Assembly (NCBI GenBank): GCA_963817895.1
Contig: CAWFQB010000002.1
Span: 160,001-224,000, forward strand
Direction of reading: 5' to 3'
DNA: 64,000 nucleotides
Source: an uncultured Chthonomonadaceae bacterium
GTDB taxonomy: Bacteria; Armatimonadota; Chthonomonadetes; Chthonomonadales; Chthonomonadaceae
The notes under the pieces are model-generated. The model was not told the origin of the DNA. It ran no database searches and worked only from the letters and a program-made list of their open reading frames with translations. Within the stretch, counting starts at the first letter, position 1; each line of letters opens with the position of its first letter. Shown piece after piece: positions 10,778 to 58,699 of the stretch. Position numbers and translations under genes: made by a program.

Positions 10778-10806
10778 TAATACCAAGCCGTTCCGCTACG
10801 TGGGAA

Positions 10807-18100: not shown

Positions 18101-18725
18101 CGCGTTCCGGCGCATGATGTCGGGGTTGGCGCTCGCGCTCGTGCTGATGTACCTGGTGCTGGTGGTGCAGTTTCGGGGCTTCTTGCAGCCCTTACAGATG
18201 ATTGCCAGTCCTGCCGCTGGAACTGGCGGGCGTGTTCACGGCTCTGTGGCTGGCGCATCAGTCGTTTTCCACTGTATCGCTGCTTGGGCATCATCGTCCT
18301 GACGGGCATGGACATAACGACCGCCGTGCTGCTCATTGACATGGTGATGAAGTACCGGGATCGAGGCGTACCGCGCGATGAAGCCATCGCACAGGCATGT
18401 CCAGAACGACTGCGGCCTATCCTGATGACCGCTGGCATCACCCTCCTGACCATGCTGCCCGTCGCCCTTGCGTCCGAAGACCGGCCTGGATGCCTACCAG
18501 CCGCTTGCCACAGCGGTCGTCGGCGGCCTGATTGTCGGCACGATCCTCAGTCTGTTCGACATCCCGATCACGCATACGCTGGTAGACGATCTGACGCGCT
18601 GGCTCAACAAGACTTTCTTGAACCGGGAGTACCATTGGCCTGTGACAGAAGCGCCGGAGATATTGGAGGGTTCATCGCCGAGCAAAGAAGATGTAGTTCA
18701 ACCGCATCGCGTACCCGAAGGATAA
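15189..18725 (+). CDS. RND efflux permease (AcrB/CusA family; multiple frameshifts)
   Basis: PIEQQM, GRLVDDSII, RLRPILMT, PLATAVVGGL spread over successive ORF pieces. Confidence 0.85.
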
Positions 18726-18746
18726 AATCAACGGTAGCCAATCATC

Positions 18747-18780
18747 CAGATGACGGGCAAGATTTTCTGCCCGTCATCTG
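18747..18780. terminator. hairpin between convergent operons
   Basis: CAGATGACGGGCA / TGCCCGTCATCTG 13-bp arms. Confidence 0.7.
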
Positions 18781-18841
18781 ATTCTGGACAACACATGGAA
18801 CATAGAAAGTGAGGACGAACAACACAATCAAAGTATCAAGA

Positions 18842-18868
18842 AGGAACACACAGTAATAAGATAATTCA
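18842..18868 (+). repeat. 27-bp direct repeat, copy 1 (AGGAACACACAGTAATAAGATAATTCA)
   Basis: Identical to 63239-63265; gapped similarity extends over ~18811-18880. Confidence 0.95.
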
Positions 18869-18959
18869 CTTTCTTTTGGGTGTCAATTCCGAGCATCACG
18901 TTGTGGGATGCAGCCATGCTTTCGCAGTACGCGACTCCAAGCGCATTGCGTGAGAAACA

Positions 18960-21165: not shown

Positions 21166-21212
21166 GGCATTGCCCTTCAACGGAAATATGCGAATATAGG
21201 ATAGTCTCATAT

Positions 21213-21229
21213 TTCTATTGCTAATAGAA
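21213..21229. promoter_or_regulatory. putative BlaI-family operator TTCTAT-TGCTA-ATAGAA
   Basis: Palindrome upstream of the ATPase; related copies at 24831, 30732, 32386. Confidence 0.65.
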
Positions 21230-21333
21230 TTTCAGAGCGTGAACCTGATAGTAGGAATAAGTTTTGGAGTGGTGCGACGGCCTAATGCTTAGGGGAAGTT
21301 TGCCCTCAAGCATTGCCCGAAAAGCGCGTCGCT

Positions 21334-21543
21334 TTATTGGGTGGGATAACCTGCTTTTTCCAGCCGAGCGCGAATGGCATTATCGTTCAGTTGCGCGTCA
21401 TCATATTCCACGCTCACGTTTTTGCTAGGAACATCCACTTCCACCGTCTGTACACCAGGTAAAGCGCCTAAAGAGCGTTTAATTGCGTTCGCGCAACCTC
21501 CGCAACTGATGTCCGGGGCGTGAGCCTGTAATGTATGGGTCAT
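21334..21543 (-). CDS. copZ: copper chaperone (HMA domain)
   Basis: DISCGGC motif, AGY terminus, AAAGGA RBS. Confidence 0.9.
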   Translation of the reverse strand: MTHTLQAHAPDISCGGCANAIKRSLGALPGVQTVEVDVPSKNVSVEYDDAQLNDNAIRARLEKAGYPTQ

Positions 21544-21643
21544 TTCTATGTATCCTTTCTCTTGCGTATCGCCTGTACTGTGAAAGGGGCAGGCATCTTT
21601 TATGTGCACGACAATGTAAGCCGCGCCGCTTACATGCGCTTCA

Positions 21644-28146: not shown

Positions 28147-29466
28147 TTACGAGTCCGTCGCAATCACTTCTTTGAACTTGAAGCCCGCTTCTTCGGCGTC
28201 CTCGTACATCAGCATCGTCATCATGCCGCCCGGCGACATGCCATTGTTCATCAGGCTAATGTCGCTGTGGTCGTGGAAGTGCCAGCCGCCCGGATTGGTT
28301 CCCTGCACAATGATGTCCGCCGTGCTGCCCGGAAAAACCGGCACGGTGTTCATGCGAACAGGCGACGCGAGTGGCGAACCATCCTGGCACACATGCCAAA
28401 AGTCGTGTCCGTGCAGGTGCATGTTGTGGAGAAGGATGCCCGCATTGATGAGCCGGATGCGGATGTTTTCGCCGCGCTTAATGTGCATGTGTTCCGTCAT
28501 GGGGTAGGGCCTGCCGTTGATGAGGAAAAAGTTCGGCTCAATCCGCATTGCCGGGCCGGTACGCGCGCGGTGATAGGGGGGCGTCCAGCCGCTTTTGACG
28601 GCCTTAACAAAGGTTTCTTTATCCTTAAACCAGCCCATCATGTTGCCATTCATCTTCGCCATGAGTTTCGAGGAGCCATTCATGGCATCCATCGTCACGC
28701 CCATCGTCAGCATTTCGTTCATCTGTTCGCGCAAAAAGTCCGTATCCACCTCGCTCAAGACAAGGGTGTACTCGCGGTCATACGGAAACGTTTTCTGCAC
28801 AATATCCGGTTCCGCAGGCTCAATGATGAGCGAACCGTATAGTCCGGCCTGGATGTGCATGTTGGTCATATTGTGGCAGTGGTAAAAGTGCGTCCCCGCA
28901 GGCTGCGCTTTCCACAGGTATGTGAACTTCTGCCCGTAACCGACCGGATACTGCGTCCCCAACGGTACACCATCCATTTCACAGGGAACGTAGATGCCGT
29001 GCCAATGGATGGTGTGGAAGTCATGGGTCTTGTTTGACAGGTTGACCTTGACCCAATCGCCTTCTTTCACACGGATTTCCGGGCCGGGCAACGTTTTGTT
29101 GAACGTATAGAAGTGGTGTTCTTCCAGCGGCAGTATCTCGATCTTCTCGACCGTCACCTCAATGTTAAACTCGTGTATTTTGTCACCCGGCTTGGGCATG
29201 TCGCGCGGGTTCCACTTGGGCGCAGTCTCGTTGATAATCAACTGCGAGGGCCAGCCATTATGCTGTGTGTTTTCCACCGGTACAGCGGTCGTGTCGGTTT
29301 TAGGCGCGGCTGGATTGACGACCGTTCCTTGTGCCTGCGCGGGCTGCGCGTCCAATCCCGCTCCTATTCCAAACGCGCCTGCGATTCCCGCCAGCCGGGA
29401 CAGGAATTTGCGGCGTCCTACCTGCTTTGTACCTTCCGGCTTTGTATATTCGGTTTTGGTGTCCAT
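28147..29466 (-). CDS. Tat-exported two-domain multicopper oxidase
   Basis: RRKFL; HTIHWHG, HCH...H...L, HNMHLHGH, HDH. Confidence 0.9.
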   Translation of the reverse strand: MDTKTEYTKPEGTKQVGRRKFLSRLAGIAGAFGIGAGLDAQPAQAQGTVVNPAAPKTDTTAVPVENTQHNGWPSQLIINETAPKWNPRDMPKPGDKIHEFNIEVTVEKIEILPLEEHHFYTFNKTLPGPEIRVKEGDWVKVNLSNKTHDFHTIHWHGIYVPCEMDGVPLGTQYPVGYGQKFTYLWKAQPAGTHFYHCHNMTNMHIQAGLYGSLIIEPAEPDIVQKTFPYDREYTLVLSEVDTDFLREQMNEMLTMGVTMDAMNGSSKLMAKMNGNMMGWFKDKETFVKAVKSGWTPPYHRARTGPAMRIEPNFFLINGRPYPMTEHMHIKRGENIRIRLINAGILLHNMHLHGHDFWHVCQDGSPLASPVRMNTVPVFPGSTADIIVQGTNPGGWHFHDHSDISLMNNGMSPGGMMTMLMYEDAEEAGFKFKEVIATDS

Positions 29467-29527
29467 CGTTGTATCCTTATGGCACGGCGGGAAAAGCATT
29501 TCCCGCCGTGCCAACTATGAACCGATG

Positions 29528-30181
29528 CTACTTCGCGTCTTTGCTCGGCGCTTCGGTCGCCTTCTTTTGCTGGGCGTCCTTGATGCGCGCGTCAAGGCCG
29601 TTCAGGTACTTGTCCGGGTTCTTGTCGAACTGCGGTTTGCACCCGTCGCAGCAGAAGTAGTACCGCGTGTCCTTGTAGTCACTGTAATCGGGGGCTTTGG
29701 CGTAAGCCTCCACGATCTCATTGCTCACCGGGCAGAACAAAACTTCCTTCTTGGGTACAGCCGCGTACTTCTTCGGCTCTTGGTCAAAGGTCTTTTTTTC
29801 ATCTTCTTTGGCAAAGAAATAGCGGACGCCGTTGTAGTCGCTATGCACGGTTGCCTTATCCGCTTCGAGGCGTTTGGTCGTGACAGGATCGAACATCGCC
29901 GTGCCGAGCACTTTGCCTTTGTTCTTGTCGTCCTTGAGGAACTTGGCCTGGTCTTTGTCGAACTGCGGCTTGCAGCCCTCGCAGCAGAAGTAATACCGCA
30001 CACCTTTGTAGTCCGAGGGCTGCGTGTCCTTTGTTACTTTGGCAATCGGGTTGTGCAGCACGGGACAGGTAAAGGAACCGGTGTCCTCAGCGCGAACGAC
30101 AGAAACAGGGAACAGTACGGCGGCGCAGGCGAGAGCCGCAAGAAAAGTGCGCCGAGACGCGCGAATGGTCTGGGAAAACAT
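29528..30181 (-). CDS. secreted protein with three YHS-like domains
   Basis: RRTFL signal; three C/DPV...DY.G/D.RY.F repeats. Confidence 0.85.
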   Translation of the reverse strand: MFSQTIRASRRTFLAALACAAVLFPVSVVRAEDTGSFTCPVLHNPIAKVTKDTQPSDYKGVRYYFCCEGCKPQFDKDQAKFLKDDKNKGKVLGTAMFDPVTTKRLEADKATVHSDYNGVRYFFAKEDEKKTFDQEPKKYAAVPKKEVLFCPVSNEIVEAYAKAPDYSDYKDTRYYFCCDGCKPQFDKNPDKYLNGLDARIKDAQQKKATEAPSKDAK

Positions 30182-40640: not shown

Positions 40641-41417
40641 TTAGGTGAGCCAGCCGTAAACTTCGGCGCGGTAGAGCGTCCTGCCCAGGAAAAACAGCCC
40701 GAAAAGAAGCAGGAACCAGCCAAAGGCGAGACGGGACTGTTTTTGGTTCAGCGCCAGTCCTAACCGTGCGCCCACATAGGTTGAGGGGATGACGCCCAGG
40801 CTAAGACGCAGGGCCAGCGACCATTCTACATGATGCAGCCGCCAATGTACCCACGTTCCGGGCACCGCCAGCAATGCGACCGCCACGAGGGACGTTCCCG
40901 CCGCTTCCTACGCGCCCATCGAGAATAGAAGCATATACGCGGGGACGAGTAGAAAGCCGCCTCCATTGGCAAGCAGGCCCGATAGGAAGCCCACGCCCGC
41001 GCCGACAGTCACGAGCGCCAGGGGCGCGATCTCCTGCCTCTCCTTTCGTTCAGGGGCTACCGGGGCCAAGCGCAGCAACCGGACGCCAACGGCAGCCACG
41101 AATAGCCCGGTCAGGATCATCAGGAGCCGACCGGGAACATTTTGCGTAAGGTACGAACCCGCGACGACGGCAGGAACGCCGCCGATGGCTGTCCAGAGAA
41201 CCGCCCGCAGGTTGACGAGGCCGCGCTTCCAGTAGGTGAAGCCTCCGACTAGAGCCGTCGGAAGCGTCACCGGAAGCGGCGTACCAAGCGCGATCAAGCG
41301 AGGAACGTCAAGGAGCCGTAGGATTGGCGTTGCTACGCTGCTGCCTCCCACACCGAAAATGCCGGAGAGAAATCCCAGCAACGCGCCCACAGCAATCATC
41401 GTGAAACGGTATTCCAT
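40641..41417 (-). CDS. TauE/SafE (TSUP) transporter (frameshift ~40905)
   Basis: GFLSGIFGVGG and GFLSGLLANGGG repeats. Confidence 0.85.
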
Positions 41418-41452
41418 TCCTTGCCCTCTGGGTAAGTTCGCCTCCCATGCGT

Positions 41453-41848
41453 TCAGATGCGGGCGCTGTCAATAAGATACCAGATGATGAGCAGTCCCAT
41501 TAACACAACAATCGCAGCAAAAGTGAGTACAAGCCCTCCCGACGCCACGTACCGATGTTCACGGATTTGCCCTTGTACTGGTAGAAAGTGGCGGGCCGAC
41601 AGTACAACGGTCAGAAGGCCAATGATCGTGAACAGCAGCCCGATGTTGGAAGCATGGACAATGCCGCGCGAGGGCGGCGTGAGCGCATTTGGCGGGAACA
41701 GGTAGCGTAGTTTGGCAATCACCACGCCGAACCCCATTGTGGCAATACCCGTTCGCAGCCATGCCAGATACGTTCGTTCGTTGGCAAGATGGTCGCGTAC
41801 ACGCTCATCGTCTTGGGAGTGTTCCACGCTTAACTCCTCTTTCATCAT
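41453..41848 (-). CDS. DUF202 (YidH-like) membrane protein
   Basis: RDHLANERTYLAWLRT. Confidence 0.9.
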   Translation of the reverse strand: MMKEELSVEHSQDDERVRDHLANERTYLAWLRTGIATMGFGVVIAKLRYLFPPNALTPPSRGIVHASNIGLLFTIIGLLTVVLSARHFLPVQGQIREHRYVASGGLVLTFAAIVVLMGLLIIWYLIDSARI

Positions 41849-42763
41849 CTACGCGGTTCTGGAAATTGCGTTGTTGCCCACGGCTATGAAATCCCATAGG
41901 GCCGACGCAACTCCGATGAGAGGGCGATCACGCCGCCGTGCCAGGTAGAAGTTTCGCGTTTGCCGCAGTCGCTCATCTGGTATAGGGCATAGTAACCCTG
42001 CTTCTTCTTCTAATCTCGTTGCCCAAGAGGACAGAACTGCCAGCCCTAACCCTGCGGCAACCGATCCCTTGATAGCCTCTGTGCTTGGCATTGCAACCAC
42101 ACGCCGAAACGCTGCCAGGAGCGGCCCCAACAATCCCTCTGCGCCTGCGCGGGTGCTTGCTCCCGGTTCGCGTAGAAAAAGCGTTCGTGTCCGCAAATCG
42201 TGTTCCTGAACAAAAGTTTGTTCCAATAGCGAGTTACCCCTAGTCACCACGAGGCGCAATTCATCCGAAGCCACGGGAACACGCAAGATGTCGGCATCCT
42301 CTTGCGCCTCGCCAACGACGGCAAGCGAGATGCGGTAGTCATGCAGCCAAGTGAGAACCTGCGCGCTATCAGCAATCATTATGTCCGGCTCTACGTTCGG
42401 GTAACGGTCACAAAAGCGGCGCAGCACACCGGGAAGCCAATAGACGCCCGGCGTACTGGACGCGGCAATCTTCACCTTACCTTCAATCTTGTCCTGAACA
42501 GAGACAACGGCGACGCGAGCATCTTCCAGCAGGCCAAAGACACGGTTCGCGTACTCGCTCAACATCTGTCCCGCAGGCGTCAGGCGCATTCCGCGGGGAG
42601 TACGCTCAAACAGCATCACCTGGTATCCGGCTTCCAGCGCACGCAACTGTGATGAAACCGCAGGCTGGCTCACGCACAACATTTTTGCGGCCTTCGTAAT
42701 ACTGCCCCACAAAACGATCTGACGAAAGACATGGAGTGGATAGAGATTGAAGGCGTTATCCAT
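41849..42763 (-). CDS. LysR-family regulator (CysL-like)
   Basis: SITKAA.L.VSQPAVS HTH; REPGASTR, STEAIKGSVAAGLG. Confidence 0.92.
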   Translation of the reverse strand: MDNAFNLYPLHVFRQIVLWGSITKAAKMLCVSQPAVSSQLRALEAGYQVMLFERTPRGMRLTPAGQMLSEYANRVFGLLEDARVAVVSVQDKIEGKVKIAASSTPGVYWLPGVLRRFCDRYPNVEPDIMIADSAQVLTWLHDYRISLAVVGEAQEDADILRVPVASDELRLVVTRGNSLLEQTFVQEHDLRTRTLFLREPGASTRAGAEGLLGPLLAAFRRVVAMPSTEAIKGSVAAGLGLAVLSSWATRLEEEAGLLCPIPDERLRQTRNFYLARRRDRPLIGVASALWDFIAVGNNAISRTA

Positions 42764-42867
42764 AAGCGGAACCTTATGTCCCTCCTTACGCAATATGACG
42801 TTGACTTATTCCTCTTACCCCTGTATGCTTCCTCCTACAAGACCTAATCTGCTGAAAGGAAAGCAAC

Positions 42868-43602
42868 ATGGGAGAAGGAAGCGTATTGCGGGAGAGTGTG
42901 CGGATGGCGTATTCTGCCATTGCAGAACATCCTGAAGCGGCGACTCCGTTTCCAACCGGGCGGGAGTTGGCGTTGAACCTGGGGTATCCATCTGATCTCC
43001 TCAATACGCTTCCATCCGTTGCGGTGGATGCTTTCTGCGGGGTCTCCAATGTTCCGTTGTTCGCTGACATTCCTGTGCGTGCAACTGTCCTCGACCTGGG
43101 ATGTGGCGCGGGACTAGACACCCTAATTACTGGACGCCGGACAGGAAAAGGAGGTAAGGTAATTGGAATTGATTTCAGCGTGACCATGTTGGCGCGGGCA
43201 CGGCAAGCGACTGACGAAGCCGGAGCCGATAACGTGGGGTTGCTACTGTCGAGCGCGGAGAGCCTGCCGCTCGAAAGTGACAGCATAGATGTGGCGCTGG
43301 TCAACGGCATCTTCAACCTGAATCCGGCACGCGAACGCATCTTCGGCGAATTGGCGCGCGTTCTGCGAACAGGTGGAGCAGTATATGTTGCCGAACTGAT
43401 ACTGAACGAATCTGCGCCTGAAGCGCAAATGCTGGGCGCAACGGAGTGGTTCTCCTGAATTGCCGGTGCAAAGGAAAGCGGCGCTTTCCTCGACGAGTTT
43501 CAGACGGCAGGATTTCACGAGGTTGTTCTGCTGCGCGCCTTCCGCAACATCCGCGCTCGTAATCCCCATGTATTCGTAGCAGAAGTGATGGCCCGAAAGT
43601 AA
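42868..43602 (+). CDS. ArsM-like SAM-dependent methyltransferase, probable selenoprotein (UGA at 43456-43458)
   Basis: FCGVSN, VLDLGCGAGLD; WFS-TGA-IAGA continues in frame through AGF to ARK-TAA (244 aa). Confidence 0.8.
43472..43490 (+). promoter_or_regulatory. candidate bacterial SECIS hairpin
   Basis: AGGAAAGC-GGC-GCTTTCCT, starting 13 nt after the UGA, G-led apical loop. Confidence 0.65.
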
Positions 43603-43631: not shown

Positions 43632-44639
43632 ATGATGATGAAGCATGATAACTTGTCTCGACGGCAACTGCTGTGCGCCGCTACGCTTGGAACAGCCAGC
43701 GTCGTTAGTCTTGGGGCTATCGAAATCGCAGAGGCCGCGCGTGTTGGGAAAACGCCACCCATGACGACCGAGGAAATGGCGGCAGTAGATGCGGCAATGG
43801 GAAAGAAGGGCAACTATGTCGAAGCGCAGGCGACTTACACAACACCGCTTCCCCGCAACGACTTGAAAATGACCGTCAAGGGCGAGAGCGTTCCCATCCC
43901 GCTCGGCTTCGGCGGGTGGGTGTCGGTGAAGAAGACACTGGATGGCAAATCCAGTGTCCTGATGAGCGACACCGTTCTGCTGCAAGAGGAAGTTAATCCG
44001 CTCATGTCCGCTGCCCATGAGAACGGTCTGGAAGTGAGCGCAGTTCACAACCACTTTTTCTATGAGGAGCCGCGCATCTTCTATATGCACGTTCACGGCA
44101 TGGGGAATGCGGCAGACCTCATCAGCAGGTATGCTGCCGCCATTAAGACCACCAAACTGTTCCCCGGCAATCAGCCTCCTGCCGGATCGCCGCCCGCGCG
44201 CATGGGCAGCGAACGATTTGACGTTCCGGCTATGGATGAGATCGTGAAGTATAAAGCCGCTGTCAATGGCCCTACCATCAAGTACACGGTAGGACGCGCT
44301 GACCTGAACGTGATCGCTATGGGCGCGGACATTACCGCCGCCATCGGTCTGAACTCTTGGGCTGCCTTTGCCGGAGACAAAGACAACGCGCATGTGGCGG
44401 GTGACATTGCCATGCTCGAACCCGAAGTCAACCCCGTTATCATGGCGCTCCACAAACATAACTTGGATGTGGTTGCCGTACATAACCACATGATCGGCGA
44501 GCAGCCGCGCATGATGTTCCTCCACTACTATGGCAGCGGCCCGGCAATGACGCTGGCGCAGGGCTTTCGGGCGGCACTAGACGAACTCGGCAAGCACGGC
44601 AAAACCCTAAACATGAAGCCAATGAAGATGGAGCGGTAG
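43632..44639 (+). CDS. Tat-exported protein with two DUF1259 (LppY/LpqO-like) domains
   Basis: SRRQLL; two EVNP...AVHNH...EPR..Y/F.H repeats. Confidence 0.85.
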   Translation: MMMKHDNLSRRQLLCAATLGTASVVSLGAIEIAEAARVGKTPPMTTEEMAAVDAAMGKKGNYVEAQATYTTPLPRNDLKMTVKGESVPIPLGFGGWVSVKKTLDGKSSVLMSDTVLLQEEVNPLMSAAHENGLEVSAVHNHFFYEEPRIFYMHVHGMGNAADLISRYAAAIKTTKLFPGNQPPAGSPPARMGSERFDVPAMDEIVKYKAAVNGPTIKYTVGRADLNVIAMGADITAAIGLNSWAAFAGDKDNAHVAGDIAMLEPEVNPVIMALHKHNLDVVAVHNHMIGEQPRMMFLHYYGSGPAMTLAQGFRAALDELGKHGKTLNMKPMKMER

Positions 44640-44654
44640 CCCTTTTGAATTTTC

Positions 44655-44695
44655 GTGCCATCGAAGGCGAAATTATATTTCGCCTTCGATGGCAC
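44655..44695. terminator. hairpin with 19-bp perfect arms
   Basis: GTGCCATCGAAGGCGAAAT-TAT-ATTTCGCCTTCGATGGCAC. Confidence 0.7.
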
Positions 44696-44770
44696 AACTT
44701 ACTCGTAATTTGATACACCTACTTGCGTGGAGCGGAAATTTCTGCTCGACGCATTATTTTTGTACACCCC

Positions 44771-44802
44771 TTGACTCTGGAACCAATTCCATAGTTTATA
44801 CT
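44771..44802 (+). promoter_or_regulatory. MerR-type promoter/operator
   Basis: TTGACT, 20 bp, TATACT with dyad ACTCTGGAA-CCAA-TTCCATAGT. Confidence 0.85.
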
Positions 44803-44808
44803 AACGCC

Positions 44809-45252
44809 ATGAAACACGCACATACGAAACAAACCACCTTGCGCTCCGGGGAACTGGCACGAGTGGCAGGCGTCAGCACCGACACACTGCGCCATTACGA
44901 GCGCAAAGGATTGCTCGCTCCGGCACGAGCCGCTAATGGTTACCGTGAACACCCTCAAGCAGCACTGGATCGCGTTCTGCTGATACGTCGGGCGCTCGCT
45001 GTTGGCTTTGGATTAGATGACTTGGCGCGTATACTCCAAACACGCGATCAGGGCGGTATGCCATGCCGCGAGGTGAGGACACTTGCCGTTACAAAACTGG
45101 ATGCAGTGGAAGCGCAAATCATAGAGTTGATCCGGCTGCGTGACGATCTGCGAGAGATGGTACACGACTGGGATGTAAAATTGGCAGAAACGCCCGTAGG
45201 AGAACGCGCGCGCCTACTGGAAACGCTGGTTTCCCAAAATTGGACGACATAG
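44809..45252 (+). CDS. MerR-family regulator
   Basis: GELARVAGVSTDTLRHYERKGLL, NGYR, GFGLDDL. Confidence 0.92.
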   Translation: MKHAHTKQTTLRSGELARVAGVSTDTLRHYERKGLLAPARAANGYREHPQAALDRVLLIRRALAVGFGLDDLARILQTRDQGGMPCREVRTLAVTKLDAVEAQIIELIRLRDDLREMVHDWDVKLAETPVGERARLLETLVSQNWTT

Positions 45253-45267: not shown

Positions 45268-45990
45268 ATGAAGAAATCGGTTAAGGACAACGCTTTACGG
45301 ATTCTAACTGTGCTGCTGGTCAGTTCGTCTGGTGGAGTATGCGCCCAAGCCGCCTCTGGAATGGATACGGGCCACATGGAGCGAATGCGCCATGAGAAAA
45401 GCCACGACATGGATACAATTCATCAGATGTTCAACTACACCGCCAAGATCAAAAGAACTGTGAAGAAAACACCAACTGGCATGGAAACCGCCACAGAGTC
45501 CAATAATCCAAAGGTAGCGGCGATGATTCAGGAACACGTTCTGGCGATGCGGACGCGCATGAAGAATCACCAGCCGATCCGCGCCTGGGACGAATTGTTC
45601 GCCACACTTTTCAAGAACGCCGACAAGGTGAAGTTCGAGATCATCAAAACACAGAAGGGAGTCAGGATTGCCGAAACGTCGGATGATCCTTATACAGTGA
45701 AGATTATCCGTGCCCACGCCCATGCGGTTTCCGACTTCATCAAAGAGGGCATGACGGGAATGGCGAAAGCGCATCCGGCTCCGGCGAAAGTGGAAGCGAC
45801 GGCAAAGGTCGTGCCCGCCGCATTCCTCGGCAAAGGGGATGGCGTCACCACTTGCCCAGTGACAGGGGAACCGGTGGACAGGAATATCAAGGCTGAGATC
45901 AACGGGCGAACTGTCTATTTCTGCTGCGCCAGTTGCAAAGGTATTGTACAAAATAAGCCGACGCAGTACCTCAAGCCGAAGTCGCCATGA
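45268..45990 (+). CDS. secreted His/Met-containing protein with C-terminal YHS domain
   Basis: Signal peptide; CPVTG...VYFCCASC. Confidence 0.75.
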   Translation: MKKSVKDNALRILTVLLVSSSGGVCAQAASGMDTGHMERMRHEKSHDMDTIHQMFNYTAKIKRTVKKTPTGMETATESNNPKVAAMIQEHVLAMRTRMKNHQPIRAWDELFATLFKNADKVKFEIIKTQKGVRIAETSDDPYTVKIIRAHAHAVSDFIKEGMTGMAKAHPAPAKVEATAKVVPAAFLGKGDGVTTCPVTGEPVDRNIKAEINGRTVYFCCASCKGIVQNKPTQYLKPKSP

Positions 45991-46029
45991 AACTTATATT
46001 TGCGTGACGTACTCATTGCCGCATATAAA

Positions 46030-46704
46030 TTAACCTGTGTCTGTTGTTCCAGGTTGCGAACAGCACTTGTTGCAGCACTCCCCGGAGATGGCTTCCTTTC
46101 CTTCCTTGATAAGGAACGGAATGAGGACAAGCGCCGCTACAAAGTTGAGCCACCACCATCCGAATAACCGGGTTGCTGCCAATCCCCCCATGAGAACGAG
46201 GGATAGATACCCGCAGGTAATCGCCTCCATAGCATCTGCGCGAAGCGCACGGGAATTCAAGCGCGCCGCAACCTTCAACTTGAATCCCGCCAGTATGGGC
46301 ATTCCAATCTTTGCGACCAGACCGATCAAGATACCCCAGGCGCTTTCGTGGGTATCGGTCACCCGATGCGCGAAGAACAGGCCGTAGGCGGAATTCAGAA
46401 CGACGTAGGCGGCGAGTATATAGAGCGTATAGCCGACCATCCGAGATGCTCGCCGCTCAACCGCCTCCACAGTCGCTTCATTCGCACGTCCTGATGCCTC
46501 AATTTGCAACCGCCAGAGCAGCACGCCCGCGCTGAACAACTCCACCACACTATCAATACCGAAGGCTTCAAGCAGCAGGCTATGGGAGGCGTGACCCAGC
46601 CACAGCGAGGCTGCGCCTTCAATGGTCATCCAAACGAGTGTAAGGTAGGTAAGTGCCAGGGCCAGCCTCACATCCGCGGCGCGGTTGTTAGCAGGGTTGT
46701 TCAT
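46030..46704 (-). CDS. short CDF-like cation transporter
   Basis: SLLLEAFGIDS..E, SRALRADA; TM domain only, Cys-rich tail. Confidence 0.8.
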   Translation of the reverse strand: MNNPANNRAADVRLALALTYLTLVWMTIEGAASLWLGHASHSLLLEAFGIDSVVELFSAGVLLWRLQIEASGRANEATVEAVERRASRMVGYTLYILAAYVVLNSAYGLFFAHRVTDTHESAWGILIGLVAKIGMPILAGFKLKVAARLNSRALRADAMEAITCGYLSLVLMGGLAATRLFGWWWLNFVAALVLIPFLIKEGKEAISGECCNKCCSQPGTTDTG

Positions 46705-46811
46705 ACTCTATCCTTCCTTCCATTTGCCAATCAGTTCCTTCGCAAGACCTAATTCCTCTTTAGAGGCTAAGGTGAGGGTACTGCGCTTGATACGTGTCGT
46801 CGGCTGTCGGG

Positions 46812-47750
46812 TTAAAGGAAAACTATCGTCGGCAATGCGCCATGCTCCTCCTGCTGATGTTTTTCCTCCGCCTGAAATGGTTCCGTGTGCAGGGTTATGA
46901 CGCTGTTAGGCAGAGCCTCGCGCACTCGCTGCTCTAACTGCTCGGTCAGTTCGTGGGCCTGCAACAGCGTGAGGTTGTCATCCATTAGGACATGGGCATC
47001 CACATGACGCACCGAACCTGCCTTGCGCGTCCGTAATTTGTGATAAGCCAGCACGTTTGTGTCGGCATCGAACACCTGCCGTATCGTTTCTATTTCCTTT
47101 TGCGGTAACTGCCTGTCAACAAGTGTACCGAACGCCTCACGCGCCACTTCCCATGCACCGTGGACAATCACGAGCGCCACCACCAACGCCAGCACGGAAT
47201 CGAAGAAGGCCAACCCCGTCACCCTCACCAGCACAAGGCCGATGAGAACGCCAATAGCGGTGTAGATGTCATTGCGGTGATCTTGGGCATCGGCGCGCAA
47301 TGCCTGTGAGTTTGTTTGCTCGGCGACCCGTTTGACATAGCGCGCGATGAAGATATTGACGATGGCGGATACGACCATGATGCCTATACCCCAATCCACA
47401 CGCGCAGGCGCGGCATGATGGACGAGGTGCTGAACAGCCTCATAGATGATGTAGGCGGCAACCCCGAACAGCAGGAGGGCCTGCACAAACGCGGACATGC
47501 TCTCCATTTTGCCATGTCCATACGGATGTGTTTCATCAGGAGGACGATCTGCAACGCGCACAGCGACCAGAGCAAGGCTGGATGCCATCAGGTCACTGGC
47601 GGAATGTGCGCCTTCGGAAATCACGCTCACGCTGCCGGAAAGCAGGCCGATTGCCAACTTGATAACCGTCAGTGCCAGGTTTGAGACTAGGGACACGCGG
47701 GCGGCGGCAAGTTTCTCCTGCTGCGCTTGCGAAACAGGATTGGTCTGCAT
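46812..47750 (-). CDS. CDF transporter (FieF-like)
   Basis: HSASD, HPYGHGKME, DHRND, C-terminal dimerisation domain. Confidence 0.9.
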   Translation of the reverse strand: MQTNPVSQAQQEKLAAARVSLVSNLALTVIKLAIGLLSGSVSVISEGAHSASDLMASSLALVAVRVADRPPDETHPYGHGKMESMSAFVQALLLFGVAAYIIYEAVQHLVHHAAPARVDWGIGIMVVSAIVNIFIARYVKRVAEQTNSQALRADAQDHRNDIYTAIGVLIGLVLVRVTGLAFFDSVLALVVALVIVHGAWEVAREAFGTLVDRQLPQKEIETIRQVFDADTNVLAYHKLRTRKAGSVRHVDAHVLMDDNLTLLQAHELTEQLEQRVREALPNSVITLHTEPFQAEEKHQQEEHGALPTIVFL

Positions 47751-48785
47751 CAAGGTTTTTCTCCCACGGGTGCGGCTTCGCCGCAAAACAATGGGTTCTT
47801 CTCGTGAGCCACGCATTCGCCCTGTAACTCCGGCTGAATTGTCGCGTGTGCGATACCGAAGTCATGGGCCAGGAGTTCACAAAGATCGTGAACAATTTTA
47901 CCGCAATCCGTCATTTTGCAGAGGTCAGGGACAACCACATGGCATGAGAGATAGTTCATGCCGTCCGTTACTGTCCAGGTGTGCAGGTCGTGTACCGCCA
48001 GAACATTGGGAACGCTCCGCATGGCCTCGACCATTTTGTTTGTGTCCAGGTTCCTGGGTGTGCCTTCCAGCAGAACGTCCGTTGCGTCCCGCACAATCCC
48101 CCACGACGAATACAGAATAAACAGCGCGATCAGCACCGAAACGGTGGGGTCGGCATAGAGCCATCCCGTCTTTTTAACCACAAACCCGGCGATGAGAACT
48201 GCTAGGGAGGAGAGCGCATCCCCCGCCATGTGAATAAACGCCGCGCGCATGTTCATGCTTTCCTTCGCGCCGCCTTGCAGCAGATAGGCAATGACTGTAT
48301 TCATCACGAGCGCGATTGCGGCGACCCACAGCATCAATGTGCCATTGACCTTTTCCGGTGTGCGGAACAGTTGATAGGCTTCCACGAGGATGAAGACGGC
48401 GATCAGAATGAGCGTCACCGCATTGAACAGCGCCGTGAGGATACCAACCCGGTGATAGCCATACGTCTTTTTGGCGTTGGCAGGCTTCTTGGCAATCCAG
48501 ACGGCGTAGGCTGCCAATCCCAGAGCCAGGGCGTCGCTCAGGTTGTGGCCTGCATCCGAAATGAGAGCCAGCGAGTTAGCAACGCGCCCAGCGATGAACT
48601 CTCCGATGACGAAGACAACTGTTATCCCCATTGAAATCCAGAGCATGGGGCCATGCGTCGCGCCATGTACATGGCCCGTACCGCCATGATCGTGTTCATG
48701 GCCTGCATGGTTGTAATCATCCCCCTGACTATTAGGCTCCTCATGGCCTGAGTGTTCATCGTGCGAAAGTGACGATTTCGGACAT
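47750..48785 (-). CDS. CDF transporter (CzcD/ZitB-like) with His-rich N terminus (frameshift near start)
   Basis: SDAGHNLSD, TYGYHR, HMAGD, HDLHTW, HATIQ; AGGAG before ATG at 48785. Confidence 0.88.
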
Positions 48786-48805
48786 TCTGCTTTCTCCTGT
48801 AATAG

Positions 48806-50074
48806 TTAAAGTTGTTCATCCTGCTCGCCCTGTGCGCTCTGAGGCTGGAATGTTGCCTTTTCCATTGTTCCTATTACATTCCGAGCAGCAACAACGGCAA
48901 CGCCGACAGACACGATGCCCGCCAGTAGGTAGGGCACTTCGGGCCTCCAATCGAACAGCACACCGCCCAGCAGAGGACCGACGAGGAAACCGAGCGAGCG
49001 CGTGGATTGCAGCAGGCCGAACATCTCGCCCTGACGCGGTTGGGGCGTGGCCTCGCTGCATAAGGTGTTGAGCGTTGGGTTAGCGCAGGCTGTGCCAATG
49101 GCAAACAGGGTACTGGCTCCAAAAAGCGCGAACAGGTTGGGCATGAACGGCATGAGGGCCAACCCGACGCCTTGCAGCAGATAGGAAAGGCGCAACAGCA
49201 GGGATGGCGCGATACGATGCGAAATCTTGTCCAGTAATACGCCCTGAACAACAACGTTCAGAAGCGCCTCATACCCGAAGATCAAGCCAAACTCTTTCGG
49301 GCCATATCCCAACTTGTGCCGGATCAGGCGTCCGAACGTTCCTTCCAGACAGGCCAGCACAAAGAACGCAAGCGCCGCCACGACAAATAAAGGCCGGAGG
49401 GAAGGCGTGTCGCGCAGCAGGGATAGGTCGAAGAACTTCTGGCGCGGCTTCACTTTGCTCTCTGAGCGCGCGTCACGCGGAACACTCAACCAAATCCACA
49501 AGGCTCCAAGCGCCGACGCGCTTGCCGCCACTCCGCCCACCAGAACATTACTCCCCTGCGCCGCCAGCCATCCGCCAAGCGCGGGGCCGAGGATCAGACC
49601 CCCTGTCGTCGCCGCTCCCATGCGCCCCATTGCCGCCGCACGGTTCGGTTCGTCCGTCGCGTCGGCAAGGTACGCCTGCGCCACCACGACGTTCGCGCCG
49701 CCAAACCCTGCCAGAATACGGCTCGCCAGCACCCACCCGATGCCGTGTGCGAGCGCGTAAACCAGCATGGAACCAGCCGACAACACACCACACACGATAA
49801 GAATGGGCTTGCGGCCTATGCGGTCGCTCAACTGTCCCCACGCAGGCGAACAGAGCATCTGAACCAGAAAGTAGGCCGTAAATACGCCGCCAATCTGCCA
49901 GCCCCGCGCCCCGAACGCTTCCAGCCGCGTCTGCACATCCGGCAGCAGCATCCCGAAGCCCGCGAGATCGAGGAAGATGGCAAATAGGAGAGGCCACTCA
50001 TGGCGAGGAACCCATCCTGATGACATAAGCGGGTGCGCTTGGGGTTGAGCATTGACGTGTACAACGTGCTTCAT
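48806..50074 (-). CDS. MFS transporter (TetA/DHA1-like)
   Basis: GQLSDRIGRK motif A, GPALGG. Confidence 0.9.
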   Translation of the reverse strand: MKHVVHVNAQPQAHPLMSSGWVPRHEWPLLFAIFLDLAGFGMLLPDVQTRLEAFGARGWQIGGVFTAYFLVQMLCSPAWGQLSDRIGRKPILIVCGVLSAGSMLVYALAHGIGWVLASRILAGFGGANVVVAQAYLADATDEPNRAAAMGRMGAATTGGLILGPALGGWLAAQGSNVLVGGVAASASALGALWIWLSVPRDARSESKVKPRQKFFDLSLLRDTPSLRPLFVVAALAFFVLACLEGTFGRLIRHKLGYGPKEFGLIFGYEALLNVVVQGVLLDKISHRIAPSLLLRLSYLLQGVGLALMPFMPNLFALFGASTLFAIGTACANPTLNTLCSEATPQPRQGEMFGLLQSTRSLGFLVGPLLGGVLFDWRPEVPYLLAGIVSVGVAVVAARNVIGTMEKATFQPQSAQGEQDEQL

Positions 50075-50340
50075 ACTTCTATTTGCCCGCTTCGACAGTA
50101 ACAGTAGACAAACTGTTGTGTGACTCCGAATGGTGTATGGTGTACCTCATGGGTATGCTCGACCAGTTGAAAGGACGCGCTGACTTCACTCGGAGGCTTT
50201 GTCGCGTAAACATTTTCCCAATGGGTTTTTGTGTGCATTGTTCTGTTATCCTCTCAAAATGCCCGAAAGTCGTATGAGAACAGAAACCTTCCTAGCATAA
50301 GTAGTCACACCGTCAATACCTAATCAGATAGTTTCGTCGT

Positions 50341-50378
50341 CATCGCTTGTCACTTCATTGCTTGTCACTTCATTGCTT
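50341..50378 (+). repeat. 15-bp tandem repeat, ~2.5 copies
   Basis: CAT(C/T)GCTTGTCACTT repeated in an intergenic region. Confidence 0.75.
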
Positions 50379-50413
50379 AAAGGTCTGGCCCCTTATTCTC
50401 ATTCTTCAAGACG

Positions 50414-51752
50414 TTATGCTGCCGGGCAGAGTTGGACGACCACACCGCCAAACGAGCGCACATGATTACGCAGCACCGTTTCCACGTCCTGCGTAATCAT
50501 GTGCGCTTCCTGCATGGAGAGACCCGGATCAACATCAATATGCAGATCAGCGAAAACCTTATGCCCCACCCACCGCGGCGCGAGCCTGATGGACGCCCCG
50601 CACACCGGCAACATACAAGGGGGTGCGTTCAATGTTGCTGAGGATTTCCGGCTCTATCCCATCCACCATGCGGTTGAAAACGGCTAACGTCGCGTCTTTG
50701 ACGATAAAGAGAATGGCAATCGTGATGAGAATGCCGATGAGTGGATCAATGATGGGATACCCGGCCCAAACGCCAACCACGCCCAACAGCACGGCGAGGC
50801 TTGTAAAGCCATCCACGCGCGCATGTTGACCGTCAGCAATCAGCGCCGCCGATTCGATTTCCCGGCCCACCTTGAGCCGAAGTACGGCAACGGCTTCGTT
50901 GCCGATGAAGCCCACGAGCGCCGCGACCGCGACCCAACCGAGGTGCGTAATTGGCTGGGGGTGAATAATCTTCATCACCAATTCATAGGCGGCGATGCAG
51001 GCCGAAAAGAAGATGACGCCGACAATCGCTACGCCCGCCACGTCTTCGGTTTTGCCATACCCATAGGTAAAGTGACGAGAGACGCCGCGCCGTGTGAGCG
51101 CAAACGCGATCCAGAGCGGAATACTGGTAGTCGCGTCCCCGAAGTTATGAATGGTATCCGCCAGGAGCGCGACCGACCCGGAGAGAAACACTATCGCCAC
51201 TTGAATGAGCGAAGTCACGAGCAGGATCACGAGCGTAATTTTAAGCGCCCAAATACCCCGCGCATTGCTTTCCATCGTCTCATCTATCTTATCCTCAATG
51301 CTGTGGGAGTGACCGAACGTGCCGCGCAGCCAGCCAAGAATTCCCCTGCCGTGTTCATGCCCTCCGGGGCCGTGCGCGTGACCGTGGCCTTCCTCAGTGA
51401 ACTCTGTTTCATAGGTGCGCGGAATGCCCGCTTGCGGAAGCGTGAGGCTTACGCGGAACTCATGCGGCTCCGGTATGTCCGAGGTAGAGCGTAGATAACC
51501 CGGTTCCGGGATGAACTCGAAGACCTGCTTTGCCCCGTCAGGCCGAACGGTTTCAATGGTGACAGCCGAACTTGTGACCGGAGGACAAGGCAGTTTTTCC
51601 GAGTTGAAGAAGTACAGTCGGAAATGCGGCGGAACTCCTGTTTCAAAGACGCTGATTTCCACAAAGCCGTTTTCGGTTTGTATCCGTGTCCCGCCATGCG
51701 GGGCGGCCTCGTTTTTGCTTTCGTTCATATCGTGCCTAACTTTCCCGGTCAC
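50414..51752 (-). CDS. CDF transporter with N-terminal soluble and His-rich domain (Co/Ni-type; frameshift ~50590)
   Basis: VFETGVPP...PEPHEF, HGHAHG, HNFGD, HARVD. Confidence 0.85.
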
Positions 51753-52027
51753 TTCAAATAAGCCTTGATAACATCTATGATTTCTTCGACCGCTTCAGCC
51801 TGTTCCGCTGTGGGAGGCCGTTCCGGGTCAACAACGTGCAGCCGAATATGCCCCTCCATCACTTCTGCCATCAGGCCGTTAATGGCCCCACGACAGGCGG
51901 CAATGCTTTGCAGGATTTGCGCCGGGTCTTTCTCTTGGTCGAGCGCCTTTTCAACTCCTTCCATCTGCCCCCGAATGCGGCGCACCCGGTCGAGGAGTTT
52001 CTTTTTGTCTCGAATGGTATGGCTCAT
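51749..52027 (-). CDS. RcnR/FrmR/DmeR-type metal-sensing repressor
   Basis: MSHTIRDKKKLLDRVRRIRGQ, IAACRGAINGLM, HIRLH. Confidence 0.9.
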   Translation of the reverse strand: MSHTIRDKKKLLDRVRRIRGQMEGVEKALDQEKDPAQILQSIAACRGAINGLMAEVMEGHIRLHVVDPERPPTAEQAEAVEEIIDVIKAYLK

Positions 52028-52063
52028 GTTGTCACCTTCCCGATATTTCGCTTGTTCTCGCGC

Positions 52064-52089
52064 GTATACTATACCCCATTAGAGTATAC
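52064..52089. promoter_or_regulatory. RcnR/FrmR-type operator
   Basis: GTATACT-ATACCCCATTAG-AGTATAC inverted repeat around a C tract. Confidence 0.7.
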
Positions 52090-52299
52090 CGACGACGAAA
52101 ATGTTTCCTCATTATGGCAGCGGGCGGAGTACCTTAAAAGCACGTTCGCGCGTGACTTCCTCAAAGCCGCATGACCTGTTGGCGGAATATCAGACCGGGC
52201 GGCTGAGGAACGACATTGACAACAAGTTCCATTCATAGGCAGCAAGCCTTCGCCAACTTTTCGGATATGTGTACAAAGATTCATTTCCGAAGGTTCGGC

Positions 52300-52483
52300 T
52301 TAGATCAGCGTGTCGGGAATCATAATTTCCAGTTTGGTCTTGACGATCTGCTCATAGCGTCCGGGATGGACGCTGACAGCGCACCTCGGAAAGCGTAATG
52401 CCCGGCAGCCCTTCGATCTCATGCAGCGCGTTCAGAACGTTATCCAGCATGAACGGCTGAATGATGGCTTTGACTTCCTTCAT
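52300..52483 (-). pseudogene. truncated P-II-family protein downstream of czcA (absent from ORF track)
   Basis: MKEVKAIIQPFMLDNVLNAL...GITLSEV / VKTKLEIMIPDTLI*; one frameshift, C-terminal GDGKIF part missing. Confidence 0.7.
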
Positions 52484-52536
52484 CGGTGTTCTTCGCACAG
52501 ACCCAGGCGAGAATATTCCTCGCCTGGGTCTGCAAG

Positions 52537-55637
<3,101 letters not shown>

Positions 55638-55640
55638 GGC

Positions 55641-57427
55641 TCAGTCATCCCCTTTCAGTTTGTCTTTGTTGGCTTCGCTTTTCAGGACAAACATGCCTTC
55701 CGTGACAACGCGCTCACCGGCTTTGAGGCTTCCGATGATTTCCGCCTGTGTATCGGTGACGCGCCCAACCTGCACCTTGCGTCGCTCGTACTTGCCATTC
55801 TCCTCCACGTACACGAACCTGTCCGCGCCATCTTCTTCCAGGGCGGAGACCGGCACGGTGAGGGCGTTCGTGCGCGTACCAACGCCGAGCGTGACGCGGG
55901 CGAACATCTCCGGGCGAAGCAGCCCGCTGCGGTTTTCGACCAAACACCGCACAGCAAGCGCGCGGGTCTTTTCGTCTACCCGGCCTGCAATGCTCTGCAC
56001 TGTTCCGGGGAAGTGCTGCTTGGGATAGGCCGGAACCGTCACCTCCACAGGCTGCCCCACCCGGATGCGCGCAACGCTCGCTTCGGCAACATTGGCGTTG
56101 ACCGTTACGGTGTTCAGGTTCTCGATGACAAGAAGGGCCGTCGTGCGCTCCACAGCCTCGCCGGTTGTTGCGGCGCGCTCCGTAACAACCCCGCTGATAG
56201 GAGCCGAAACGGTGATCAGACCGCCATTTCCCTCCGTATGCCCACTTCCTTCCAGGGCGTAAAGATTGGTGCGGGCGGTTCGCAACGTATCTTCCGCGCC
56301 TCGCAAAGTGGTTCGGGCCGCCTGCTCGCCTTTTTGTGCGCGGCGAACGTCCTGCTGTGCCCGCAGCACTCCCTGTCGGGCTTTCTGCACCTCGCCCTGC
56401 GCGGCGCGCACGTCGGCTTCTGCGGTCTGCACTTCGCGCGCGTTCAGCAAACCGCCCTGAAAAACGGTCTGTTCGCGTTGCAGCGCTTGTTTGGCAATGG
56501 CGACACGCTCCTGAATCCGGTTCACCGTGATCTGGTTCTGTTTTTGTTCCAGTTGTGCCGCTTCGTAATCGTTGCGCGACACCAATTCTTCTTTGAACAG
56601 CCGCTCGGTGCGCTGCAACTGCGCCGCGCGGGTTTGCAGTTGCGCTTGCGCCTGTTGTAGTTCGGATTGGGCAGCGGTCACCTCGGTCTGAGCGGCTTGT
56701 AGCGGGACTTGTGAGAAGGCTCCCGCCTGAGCCAGTTTACGCTGGCGCTGCAACACGGTTTCCGCGCTGGCTTGCCGGGTGCGCGCCTGCTCCACTTCGC
56801 CCTGCGCCTGCTGGACGCTTGCTTGGTACTGTGATACCTCCGCCTGCGCGGTTTGTATCCCGGAGCGCGCCTGCTGTATGCCGGATTCGGCCTGGCGCAC
56901 GGCAGCATGGGCCTGTGCCACCTCATAACTATCCAGAACGACGAGCGGCTGTCCGGCGCGCACCGTATCGCCAAGATTGACCAGCAGGCGCATCACCTTG
57001 CCGGGCGTGGGCGGCGTAATCTTCGCGCCCCGATTGGGACTGAGTTCGACGGTGCCGGGAACGGTCAGCCCTTCGCCGATGGACGCAAGACGCGCTGCCA
57101 CCACGCGAATGCCAGCAGTTTTGGCGGCTTCCTCGCTCAAGGAAATGGAGCCGGAAGCGTCGCTTTCTGCTTTGGCTTCTTTGGGTGCGTCCTGAGCCGG
57201 GCTTGTGGCGGCGGGGGCGATGGATGAAGGCGCGGCATTACAAACGACGTAGCCACAACGCCGAGCAGAATGCCGCCAATGATAAGCGGCAAGCCCGATT
57301 TGCGCGGTGAGGCGGCCTGGCGCCTGCCAGAGATCGGAACACTTGCCGCAGTCCCATGCGTGGTTCTAGGTACAGGTGGCGGTATATGTTCGGTTGTGTT
57401 GTGTGTGGTTTCGGGCAAAGGATTCAT
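55641..57427 (-). CDS. czcB: heavy-metal RND periplasmic adaptor (frameshift ~57150)
   Basis: GDTVRAGQ, SAPISGVV, LRPEMFA. Confidence 0.85.
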
Positions 57428-57429
57428 GT

Positions 57430-58699
57430 TTACCTCCGGGGCGCGGGCAGCAACGAAGCAGGAACCGCACCCGCCGCGCGCTCCAACTCGGCGCGCGCCT
57501 GGGCCTGGTTTGCCAGAGCGTTGATGTAGTCGGTTTGCACGGCGCGATATGTGCGCTGCGCTTCCAAAATGGTGAGGACGCTGGTTCCCGCCGCGCCTTC
57601 CTGAAACGCCCTGCGGCTGCCTTCCAGCAGGCGGCGTGACTGGTCGAGGATGCCCTGTTGGTAGTTCAGCGCCACGGTTTGAGCTGCGCGCAGGCGGGCA
57701 ATGGCCTGAGTCACTTCCTGCTGCACCTGGTTCTGGGTTGCGGTAATGCGGTCCGTCTGCGCGCGGGCAGATTCTTCGGCCTGGCGGATGCGGTTGCGGC
57801 GATTGCCGTAGTCAAAGATGGGCAGCGAAATGCCTAGTCCCACGCCGAAGCCGTTGCCCGTGTCGCCGCTCGGCGTCCCTCGTACCAGGCTGCCGAAGCG
57901 GATTTGGGGCGCGAGGTCAGGGCGGCCCTCGGCACGGGCAAGGCGCGCTTCCTGCAAGAAGGTGTCGCGGCTGGCAGTCACACTGGCAATCTCGGCCCGG
58001 TTTTGCAAGGACTGCTGCACAAGAGCCGCATCAGTGAGCGTTTCCGTAGCCGAAGGCAGTGGGGTGAGCGGGCCAATGGGAGTGTCTGCGGGTCTTCCCA
58101 AGAAGGTGTTCAGAGCAGAAATTGCAGCCGTCACCTGGGCATCTGCAAGGGTCACCTGCTGCTGCGCGCGCCCCACTTCAATGCCGGTCTGTGCCAGATC
58201 AATGCCGGGCCGCCTGCCCGCCTTCCACTAGGAGGCGCGTCACGCGGTCGAACTCCTGCGCGTTTTTCAGCACCTCCTGCGCCAGGGTTTGCAGTTCCCG
58301 CGCCTGTTCCAGTTGGTAGTAGGCGGACTTGGTAGCCGACACGAGACCCCGCAGTTCAACAACCGCCTCGGCCTGGGTGACGCGCAACTGCGCCCCGGCA
58401 ACGCCTGTGCGCGCGGAGCGAGTTCCATTGAGTTCCAATGGCTGGGACAACAACAGTTCGTCGCCGGAACCGGAAATACTTGTCAGTCCTGGCGCGAAGA
58501 TGAAGTTGGGGTTGGTAAGCGCGCGTGCCGAACGGACGCCAGACTGTCCCGCCACGACATCTCGCGTGGCAGCCGACAGGCGTGGGTTGTTCTTGACCGC
58601 CAGCGTCACCGCATCGTCTGCGGTGAGGGGCGGGGATATGGTCTGTGCCGTGATAACACCCGGCACAAGCAAAAGCAAACAGGGAAGAATGAAACGCAC
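57430..58699 (-). CDS. czcC: TolC-family outer membrane factor (frameshift ~58200)
   Basis: NNPRL, LSQPLEL, SLPIFD, LEAQRT. Confidence 0.85.

Follow-up and report, generated by a model that had tools for sequence, protein, structure and literature searches.

The gene at positions 42868-43602 (+ strand) of the window, as the whole analysed stretch of 64,000 nucleotides is called here, is with a probability of about 0.92 an intact selenoprotein gene, which encodes a SAM methyltransferase of the ArsM/AS3MT fold and in which the codon UGA197 is decoded as selenocysteine (Sec). This reading is built on the observed structure of the gene, the Sec/Cys pairing at one column among its relatives, a conserved SECIS hairpin, the Sec machinery of the genome, and the fold of the product; what we infer is actual Sec insertion in the source strain, the substrate, and the regulation of the gene.

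Coding Frame and Product

Under genetic code table 11 the ORF starts at ATG 42868 and ends as ...ATEWFS at TGA 43456-43458 (ORF 42868-43458), and gene callers end the methyltransferase at codon 196. Past this TGA the frame stays open for 47 sense codons (IAGAKESGAFLDEFQTAGF...ARK) up to TAA 43600-43602, and the full CDS including the Sec codon comprises 244 codons plus TAA, as indicated by the frame itself, by family matches, and by orthologues. The first-pass annotation, made from the letters alone, had described an ORF stopping after WFS and a frame continuing for 47 sense codons to TAA 43602, and re-reading of the sequence agrees with it. Translation with TGA read as U continues via IAGAKESGAFLDEFQTAGFHEVVLLRAFRNIRARNPHVFVAEVMARK and gives a single-domain protein of 244 aa with one Sec, U197. 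Upstream a Shine-Dalgarno-like AAAGGAAAG (42855-42863, + strand) was read from the sequence, the AGGA of which ends 7 nt before ATG 42868, and it probably acts as the Shine-Dalgarno site of the gene. A scan of the whole window for further in-frame TGA read-throughs yielded just frameshift junctions, adjacent genes, and non-coding frames, as judged by eye.

The UGA Codon and Its Cysteine Counterparts

The UGA codon read as Sec (43456-43458, + strand; U197), which is placed by the Sec/Cys pairing and by the alignment to 4fr0 in the column of CmArsM Cys224, is TGA in 13 of 13 orthologous loci with 55-65% identity. When all tblastn matches covering this column were counted, which took in matches in related genomes and 80 loci fetched from named public genomes, 25 TGA codons, 64 TGC/TGT codons, and 5 codons for another residue were obtained. 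This is the in-frame UGA/Cys pairing that is looked for in a bacterial selenoprotein gene, and it bears out the earlier proposal that the UGA occupies a conserved Cys position, the TGC/TGT codons belonging to the more distant relatives. In 61 related genomes 46 places match the protein, and exactly one in-frame TGA is found in 10 of these, including all 5 places with at least 62% identity; in a sample of 401 genomes from the phylum a single TGA is present in each of the five matches with 61-100% identity, and a sixth match, at 37%, has none. The surrounding motif also follows the branches, being WF[STA]-U-IAGAKE in the branch of the window's protein, W.G-U-IAGAL in the paralogous Sec branch, and.[WY].GC[VI]AGAL in ordinary ArsMs. 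The statement of the first-pass annotation that ArsM has its Cys in W..CIAGA followed by AGF is matched by W..C[IV]AGA...AGF, which was found in the Cys-type relatives.

The same codon could be a genuine stop, in which case the enzyme is the 196-residue form known from databases and the downstream frame is untranslated. Such a form is indeed what gene callers give in 114 of the best 120 relatives from a large protein collection, which stop at the U197 column with 77-80% query coverage, while 3 read W and 3 read C at this column, W being what a TGA would give under code 4. Against termination, every orthologue shows protein-level conservation of the 47 downstream codons (IAGAKE.GAFL..F..AGF), and in the true Cys forms P0006, P0007, and P0015 (53-56% identity by search; 55, 54, and 52% in alignment A1) this region runs on unbroken from the upstream part. 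Moreover, a confident structural model places its last helix and two strands in these 47 residues, and a 196-residue product is left without the equivalent of CmArsM Cys224. On this balance termination at the UGA is considered very improbable.

Even less credit is given to the idea that the TGA arose through faulty sequencing or assembly, or that a Cys codon has recently mutated to a stop, the gene then encoding an ordinary Cys enzyme or being a fresh pseudogene. TGA is one base away from TGC and TGT, and the assembly is error-prone; however, its visible errors are indels and not substitutions, the TGA is present in all 13 orthologues and is followed by a conserved SECIS, and 43456-43458 is likewise unchanged in contigs (43414-43564 and 43447-43597) of two further public runs, which come from different studies, so that the TGA of the first reading recurs in other data. 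The cover by public runs consists of short contigs of four runs with small parts of the stretch (shares 0.05-0.12), and the positions 42904-42971 and 43176-43413 are uncovered. The probability of an error or a fresh mutation is thus regarded as negligible, and decoding of UGA197 as Sec is retained as the preferred reading.

SECIS Hairpin

The bacterial SECIS hairpin, recognized by its fold and its conservation, is located at 43472-43490 (+ strand). Its arms AGGAAAGC (43472-43479) and GCTTTCCT (43483-43490) form 8 Watson-Crick pairs with no mismatch and enclose the loop GGC (43480-43482); the hairpin starts 13 nt and the loop 21 nt past the TGA, and the minimum free energy (MFE) of the hairpin alone is -9.2 kcal/mol. 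The 8-bp stem with a GGC loop 13 nt after the UGA had been described in the first reading exactly as it stands in the sequence. According to a published figure legend, bacterial SECIS elements have a loop of 3-9 nt, a stem of 4-16 bp, a G in loop positions 1-2, a UGA-to-loop distance of 16-37 nt, and an MFE of -7.5 kcal/mol or lower (PMC13188914, Fig. 2 legend), and the 3-nt GGC loop, the 8 bp, the 21 nt, and the -9.2 kcal/mol all lie within these limits.

The chance rate of such structures is given by 17 of the 1,969 TGA triplets of the window (both strands) that precede a comparable hairpin, defined as a perfect 8-bp stem with a loop of 3-9 nt, a G in loop positions 1-2, and a loop start 16-37 nt downstream. 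The 81 nt that surround the hairpin fold with no greater stability than their shuffled versions (z = 0.27; 118 of 200 shuffles were as good or better), and the hairpin therefore counts as evidence because it is conserved and not because of its folding energy. In an alignment of 60 nt from the TGA of the 13 orthologues all 13 loci retain the 8-bp stem; 98.1% of cells are paired versus 45-67% when the 3' arm is slid, and two stem pairs show compensatory changes (AU in nine, GC in two, and GU in two loci at one pair; GC in nine and AU in four loci at the other). Together with the agreement with the published limits, these data substantiate the SECIS-like character that had been proposed for the hairpin. 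As the stem lies within codons of conserved residues, part of its conservation belongs to the protein level. In the paralogous Sec branches, where other residues are encoded, a different stem of 7-8 bp with a G-led 3-nt loop is found in the same place, and in one public-run contig the stem has G-U in place of a G-C pair, owing to a synonymous C>T at 43488. Finally, the fold of the 45 nt after the codon has a mean of -15.8 in Sec loci (n=25) versus -11.8 in Cys loci (n=64; Mann-Whitney p = 0.0004), with overlapping distributions and relatives that are not independent, and this greater stability in the Sec loci lends weak support to the SECIS.

Selenocysteine Machinery and Assembly Quality

The genome contains a tRNA-Sec (63.9 bits at a cut-off of 47; designated by ARAGORN as SeC with the anticodon tca), selA (517.7 bits), and selD (364.2 bits; locus L018, G000:C3:161301-162242, - strand), and the tRNA-Sec, SelA, and SelD that are looked for in a Sec-decoding host are accordingly all present. 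The selD gene is itself a selenoprotein gene, since it has one in-frame TGA (GAGUAGK, Sec at U31) in the UxxK motif of Sec-type SelD and is otherwise intact. The selB gene was found at G000:C14:204962-206852, where it is spread over at least four reading frames in pieces of 222.5, 86.5, and 29.1 bits, all under the cut-off of 242.25. The host Sec machinery on which the first-pass annotation had made the enzyme dependent is thus confirmed for tRNA-Sec, selA, and the Sec-containing selD, while selB was found yet is broken by frameshifts in this assembly.

If the breaks in selB are real, Sec insertion is impossible in the strain, and the methyltransferase would be a selenoprotein by descent that is silent here, selB being a true pseudogene and the product a 196-residue fragment without the active-site loop. 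The spread of selB over at least four frames with no piece above the cut-off is what this explanation has in its favour. It has to be set against the fact that unrelated genes of the window, namely those of RND pumps, P-type ATPases, and a TauE/SafE permease, are split by frameshifts in the same way and that the genome is 81% complete on 14 contigs, which fits assembly indels; in addition, selD requires Sec at U31 and is intact in all other respects, selA and tRNA-Sec are intact, and the methyltransferase frame and its hairpin are free of decay. Because of the likewise split window genes and the state of the genome the breaks in selB are taken as assembly indels, which is the main remaining doubt about the preferred reading, and a silent gene is regarded as unlikely. 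The frameshifts in general likely represent frequent indel errors of a long-read assembly and not mass pseudogenisation; the first reading took the remaining apparent errors for indels, which accords with the many frameshift-split genes of the window and with selB. Split long genes of the window are seen at 15269-18778, 18963-23473, 40644-41417, and 52571-54167, each as 2-4 overlapping ORFs in differing frames. Among the public runs checked for the methyltransferase gene no RNA run is listed, which says nothing either way on its expression.

Protein Family, Fold, and Active Site

In the Pfam search generic SAM-methyltransferase domains alone were detected in the protein (Methyltransf_31/25/11), and no NCBIfam model reached its cut-off, all matches being far below it: NF041537 scored 171.1 (cut-off 510), NF047649 168.1 (460), NF041536 155.1 (575), and NF008823 152.9 (263). 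The AlphaFold2 model, obtained with a 36-row alignment, has a mean pLDDT of 92.8 and a pTM of 0.91, with lower values (68-73) only in residues 181-200, which form the U197 loop, and its top 12 PDB matches in Foldseek are ArsM/AS3MT structures (TMq 0.65-0.76, E about 1e-15). When the sequence is aligned with CmArsM (4fr0), chain position 224 is matched by U197 and position 174 by G147 (VNGIFNL), and the protein thus has the SAM-binding methyltransferase domain with the ArsM fold as well as a Cys/Sec residue at CmArsM 224.

The partner cysteines are a different matter. A phylogenomic study of ArsM describes Cys72, Cys174, and Cys224 of CmArsM as integral to arsenite binding and counted a protein as ArsM only when it had three or more of the cysteines 44, 72, 174, and 224 (PMC5552862). 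In the window's protein Gly147 takes the place of Cys174 and is invariant in 11 rows of alignment A1 and in 13 of 13 orthologous loci; Cys is lacking throughout residues 1-56, and Cys44 has no equivalent; and many orthologues have S, T, A, or V instead of Cys57, which is located two residues before the CmArsM 72 column. With Sec at 224, Gly at 174, and no Cys44, the protein falls short of the three-of-four rule, and because it has Gly in place of Cys174 and lacks the N-terminal Cys it is designated here as ArsM-like and not as a canonical arsenite methylase. The family assignment of the first-pass annotation is therefore upheld in the fold and in the Sec at the Cys224 position, but does not reach as far as a strict ArsM, since the partner cysteines are missing and the NF008823 score is well short of its cut-off. 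As Gly is invariant at the Cys174 position, no Cys occurs in the Cys44 region, and Cys57 is variable, Sec197 is the sole chalcogen residue conserved in the branch.

In a rapid maximum-likelihood tree with 88 rows, which was restricted to matches spanning residues 75-215 and excluded shorter ones (e.g., L049, L054, L070, L071, and L096), the window's protein belongs to an all-Sec clade of 12 (SH-aLRT 99). This clade is placed outside a grouping of 56 rows (SH-aLRT 90, drawn unresolved inside) which holds every canonical Cys147 row. Sec is present in 21 of the 28 tree rows with Gly147 versus 1 of the 56 with Cys147, but since the sample is biased by the fetching patterns and the related sequences are not independent, the association of Gly147 with Sec is a lead and not a statistic.

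Proposed Mechanism

In the proposed mechanism SelB with Sec-tRNA(Sec) would recognise the hairpin 43472-43490 within the CDS as the ribosome meets UGA197, and Sec would be inserted in the manner established for bacteria. Sec197 is predicted to be carried on a flexible loop, in the place where Cys224 of CmArsM helps to hold As(III) beside the methyl group of SAM; its selenolate would bind a soft metalloid or chalcogen substrate, to which the SAM methyl would then be transferred. As the partner thiols are gone, binding of the substrate would depend mainly on a single selenolate, and the three-thiolate binding and the disulfide relay of classical ArsM would be unavailable. Most likely, to judge from the residues left at the active site, a soft metalloid or chalcogen is held by the single Sec ligand and methylated. 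With the canonical arsenite-binding cysteines missing, the nature of this substrate can only be guessed, and the odds appear roughly even between arsenicals (arsenite or methylarsenite) and a different element, for example selenium or tellurium.

A bolder version, which is possible though doubtful, describes the branch not as arsenite methylases but as "one-selenol" methyltransferases that have discarded the multi-cysteine arsenite site, hold the substrate through a single Se-X bond, and methylate, for example, selenide, telluride, or another soft element as detoxification, their genes being switched on by a co-inherited selenium-responsive LysR. If this were true, loss of the Cys174 partner together with Sec use would mark a change of mechanism and not drift.

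Gene Neighbourhood and Mobility

Directly upstream of the methyltransferase gene and divergent from it is a gene of a LysR-family regulator (41852-42793, - strand; Pfam HTH_1 and LysR_substrate), the best NCBIfam match of which is NF040786, the selenium metabolism-associated LysR (204.4 bits, under the cut-off of 250). The divergent LysR-methyltransferase pair is also present in the orthologous loci L023 and L040, where the LysRs are 49% and 54% identical, and the LysR of L046 is more distant (30%). The LysR at 41852-42793 probably regulates the methyltransferase gene. After it, on the same strand, genes of a DUF202 (YidH-like) protein and of the TauE/SafE permease are observed (40644-41848, - strand), which could represent an anion exporter set under the same LysR; the small ORFs that follow the LysR in L023 and L040 gave no Pfam match.

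On the downstream side, a gene at 43632-44639 (+ strand) starts 29 nt past the methyltransferase stop; its 335-aa product contains two DUF1259 domains and, at the N-terminus, a twin-arginine-like signal (SRRQLL). This gene may be co-transcribed with the methyltransferase and was not seen beside any orthologue. Further on, the gene at 45268-45987 (+ strand) encodes a secreted-looking protein of 240 aa with the end ...CPVTGEPV...GRTVYFCCASCKG, a TRASH/YHS-like metal-binding tail, for which no Pfam or NCBIfam match was obtained at the thresholds used. Metal-resistance genes are dense at 9700-23500 and 46000-58200, with two Cus-type OEP/HlyD/RND sets and at least two P-type ATPases with an HMA domain; the metal-resistance content also includes a multicopper oxidase (28150-29514), a YHS-domain protein (29531-30181), a MerR-family regulator (44689-45249), and four genes of the cation-diffusion-facilitator (CDF) family (46033-51752).

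The flanks of the orthologues vary by locus, save for the LysR (in the window, L023, L040, and L046) and a tandem Sec-methyltransferase paralogue (in L022, L023, and G034:C224); the orthologues in L046 and L047 adjoin Cus-type efflux parts, and twelve small flanking ORFs had no Pfam match. Side-by-side pairs of Sec ArsM-like genes were observed in L022 (1501-3008), L023 (691-2229), G034:C224:9289-10767, and L050 (2701-4707), each pair consisting of one gene of the WFS-U-IAGAKE branch and one of the WTG-U-IAGAL branch with its own hairpin in each gene, and the window's genome has the WFS-U-IAGAKE form only.

Orthologues were obtained from five genomes of the window's own phylum and from records titled as Pseudomonadota, Acidobacteriota, Chloroflexota, Planctomycetota, Rokuibacteriota, and a "delta proteobacterium", with at least six named phyla or classes represented. 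In two genomes of the same genus the gene was not found, the better match there being a canonical ArsM with 34% identity, and with these genomes the region 9.7-18.7 kb of the window is syntenic and the region 30-64 kb has scattered matches. Absence in the genus, the variable region, and the wide spread of orthologues would fit an accessory, horizontally exchanged gene. The mobile island suggested by the first-pass annotation is a stronger claim, and of it only the variability of the region and the absence in the same genus could be demonstrated: all tyrosine-integrase (PF00589) and rve (PF00665) matches of the genome are outside the window (0 within C2:160001-224000), the Pfam scan of 68 window ORFs gave no match to a mobility family, and the GC content of the window (56.4%) is ordinary for the genome (56.85%, sd 1.3% in 20-kb windows). 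For these reasons mobility is not supported.

Significance

The annotation value of these data is that a widespread branch is almost always listed in databases as "arsenite methyltransferase" or "SAM-dependent methyltransferase" of 196-200 residues without the active-site residue, as is the case for the 114 truncated entries among the best 120 relatives. Selenoproteome counts will overlook this branch, and counts of arsM genes used as a proxy of arsenic methylation may take in proteins of the branch, which have no arsenite-binding cysteines. Also, the branch could serve as a test case for the benefit of Sec as the only ligand in a metalloid methyltransferase.

Comparison with Known Selenoproteins and ArsM Enzymes

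An "arsenite methyltransferase" (PRK11873/NF008823, motif UxxG, WP_011987699.1) is included among the experimentally verified selenoproteins in two reviews, the tables of which both cite Fomenko et al. 2007 (Science 315:387) for the Sec arsenite methyltransferase (PMC9312934, PMC13188914). In the GOS survey of 2008 there were 8 Sec-type arsenite methyltransferase sequences (PMC2398784), and fused ArsM-type double and triple selenoproteins date from 2025, with models attributed to Haft & Tolstoy 2025 (PMC13188914); in the main text of the BSepDB paper methyltransferases are unmentioned (PMC13326102). An ArsM-type selenoprotein has therefore been in print since 2007, and the high novelty implied by the first reading is not sustained.

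The classical Sec arsenite methyltransferase, represented here by the locus L076 of Clostridium senegalense, is like the window's protein an ArsM-fold SAM methyltransferase with Sec in the same column, the motif UxxG (U-I-A-G in the window's protein), and a SECIS just downstream. However, the remaining cysteines are preserved in the classical form (L076 shows LGCGN and also a Cys at the 147 column), whereas the window's protein has Gly147 and no N-terminal Cys. The top-scoring models for the window's protein, NF041537 (ArsM/AhpD), NF047649 (methyltransferase/UXPK-star double selenoprotein), and NF041536 (ArsM/DUF2284), match in the methyltransferase part only and share the UxxG motif with it; unlike these fused selenoproteins the window's protein ends at residue 244 without a second domain or tail and stays below their cut-offs. 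The locus L052 has a methyltransferase domain with Gly at the 147 column, followed by a long C-terminal extension, and from its sequence appears to be of the DUF2284 fusion type.

The Cys-type enzymes, namely CmArsM (4fr0/6cx6), CrArsM (5evj), and human AS3MT (8xt7), share with the window's protein the fold, the SAM-binding motif, and the position of the active-site residue, but the identity is 24-25%, their length is 377-383 residues versus 244, and the C-terminal domain of CmArsM is absent in the window's protein. In comparison with CmArsM, Cys224 is replaced by Sec, Cys174 by Gly, and Cys44 by nothing. In summary, the window's gene is an unannotated addition to the known ArsM-type selenoproteins, and its branch is set apart by the single-domain form, the loss of the partner cysteines, scores that reach no curated cut-off, and routine truncation in databases.
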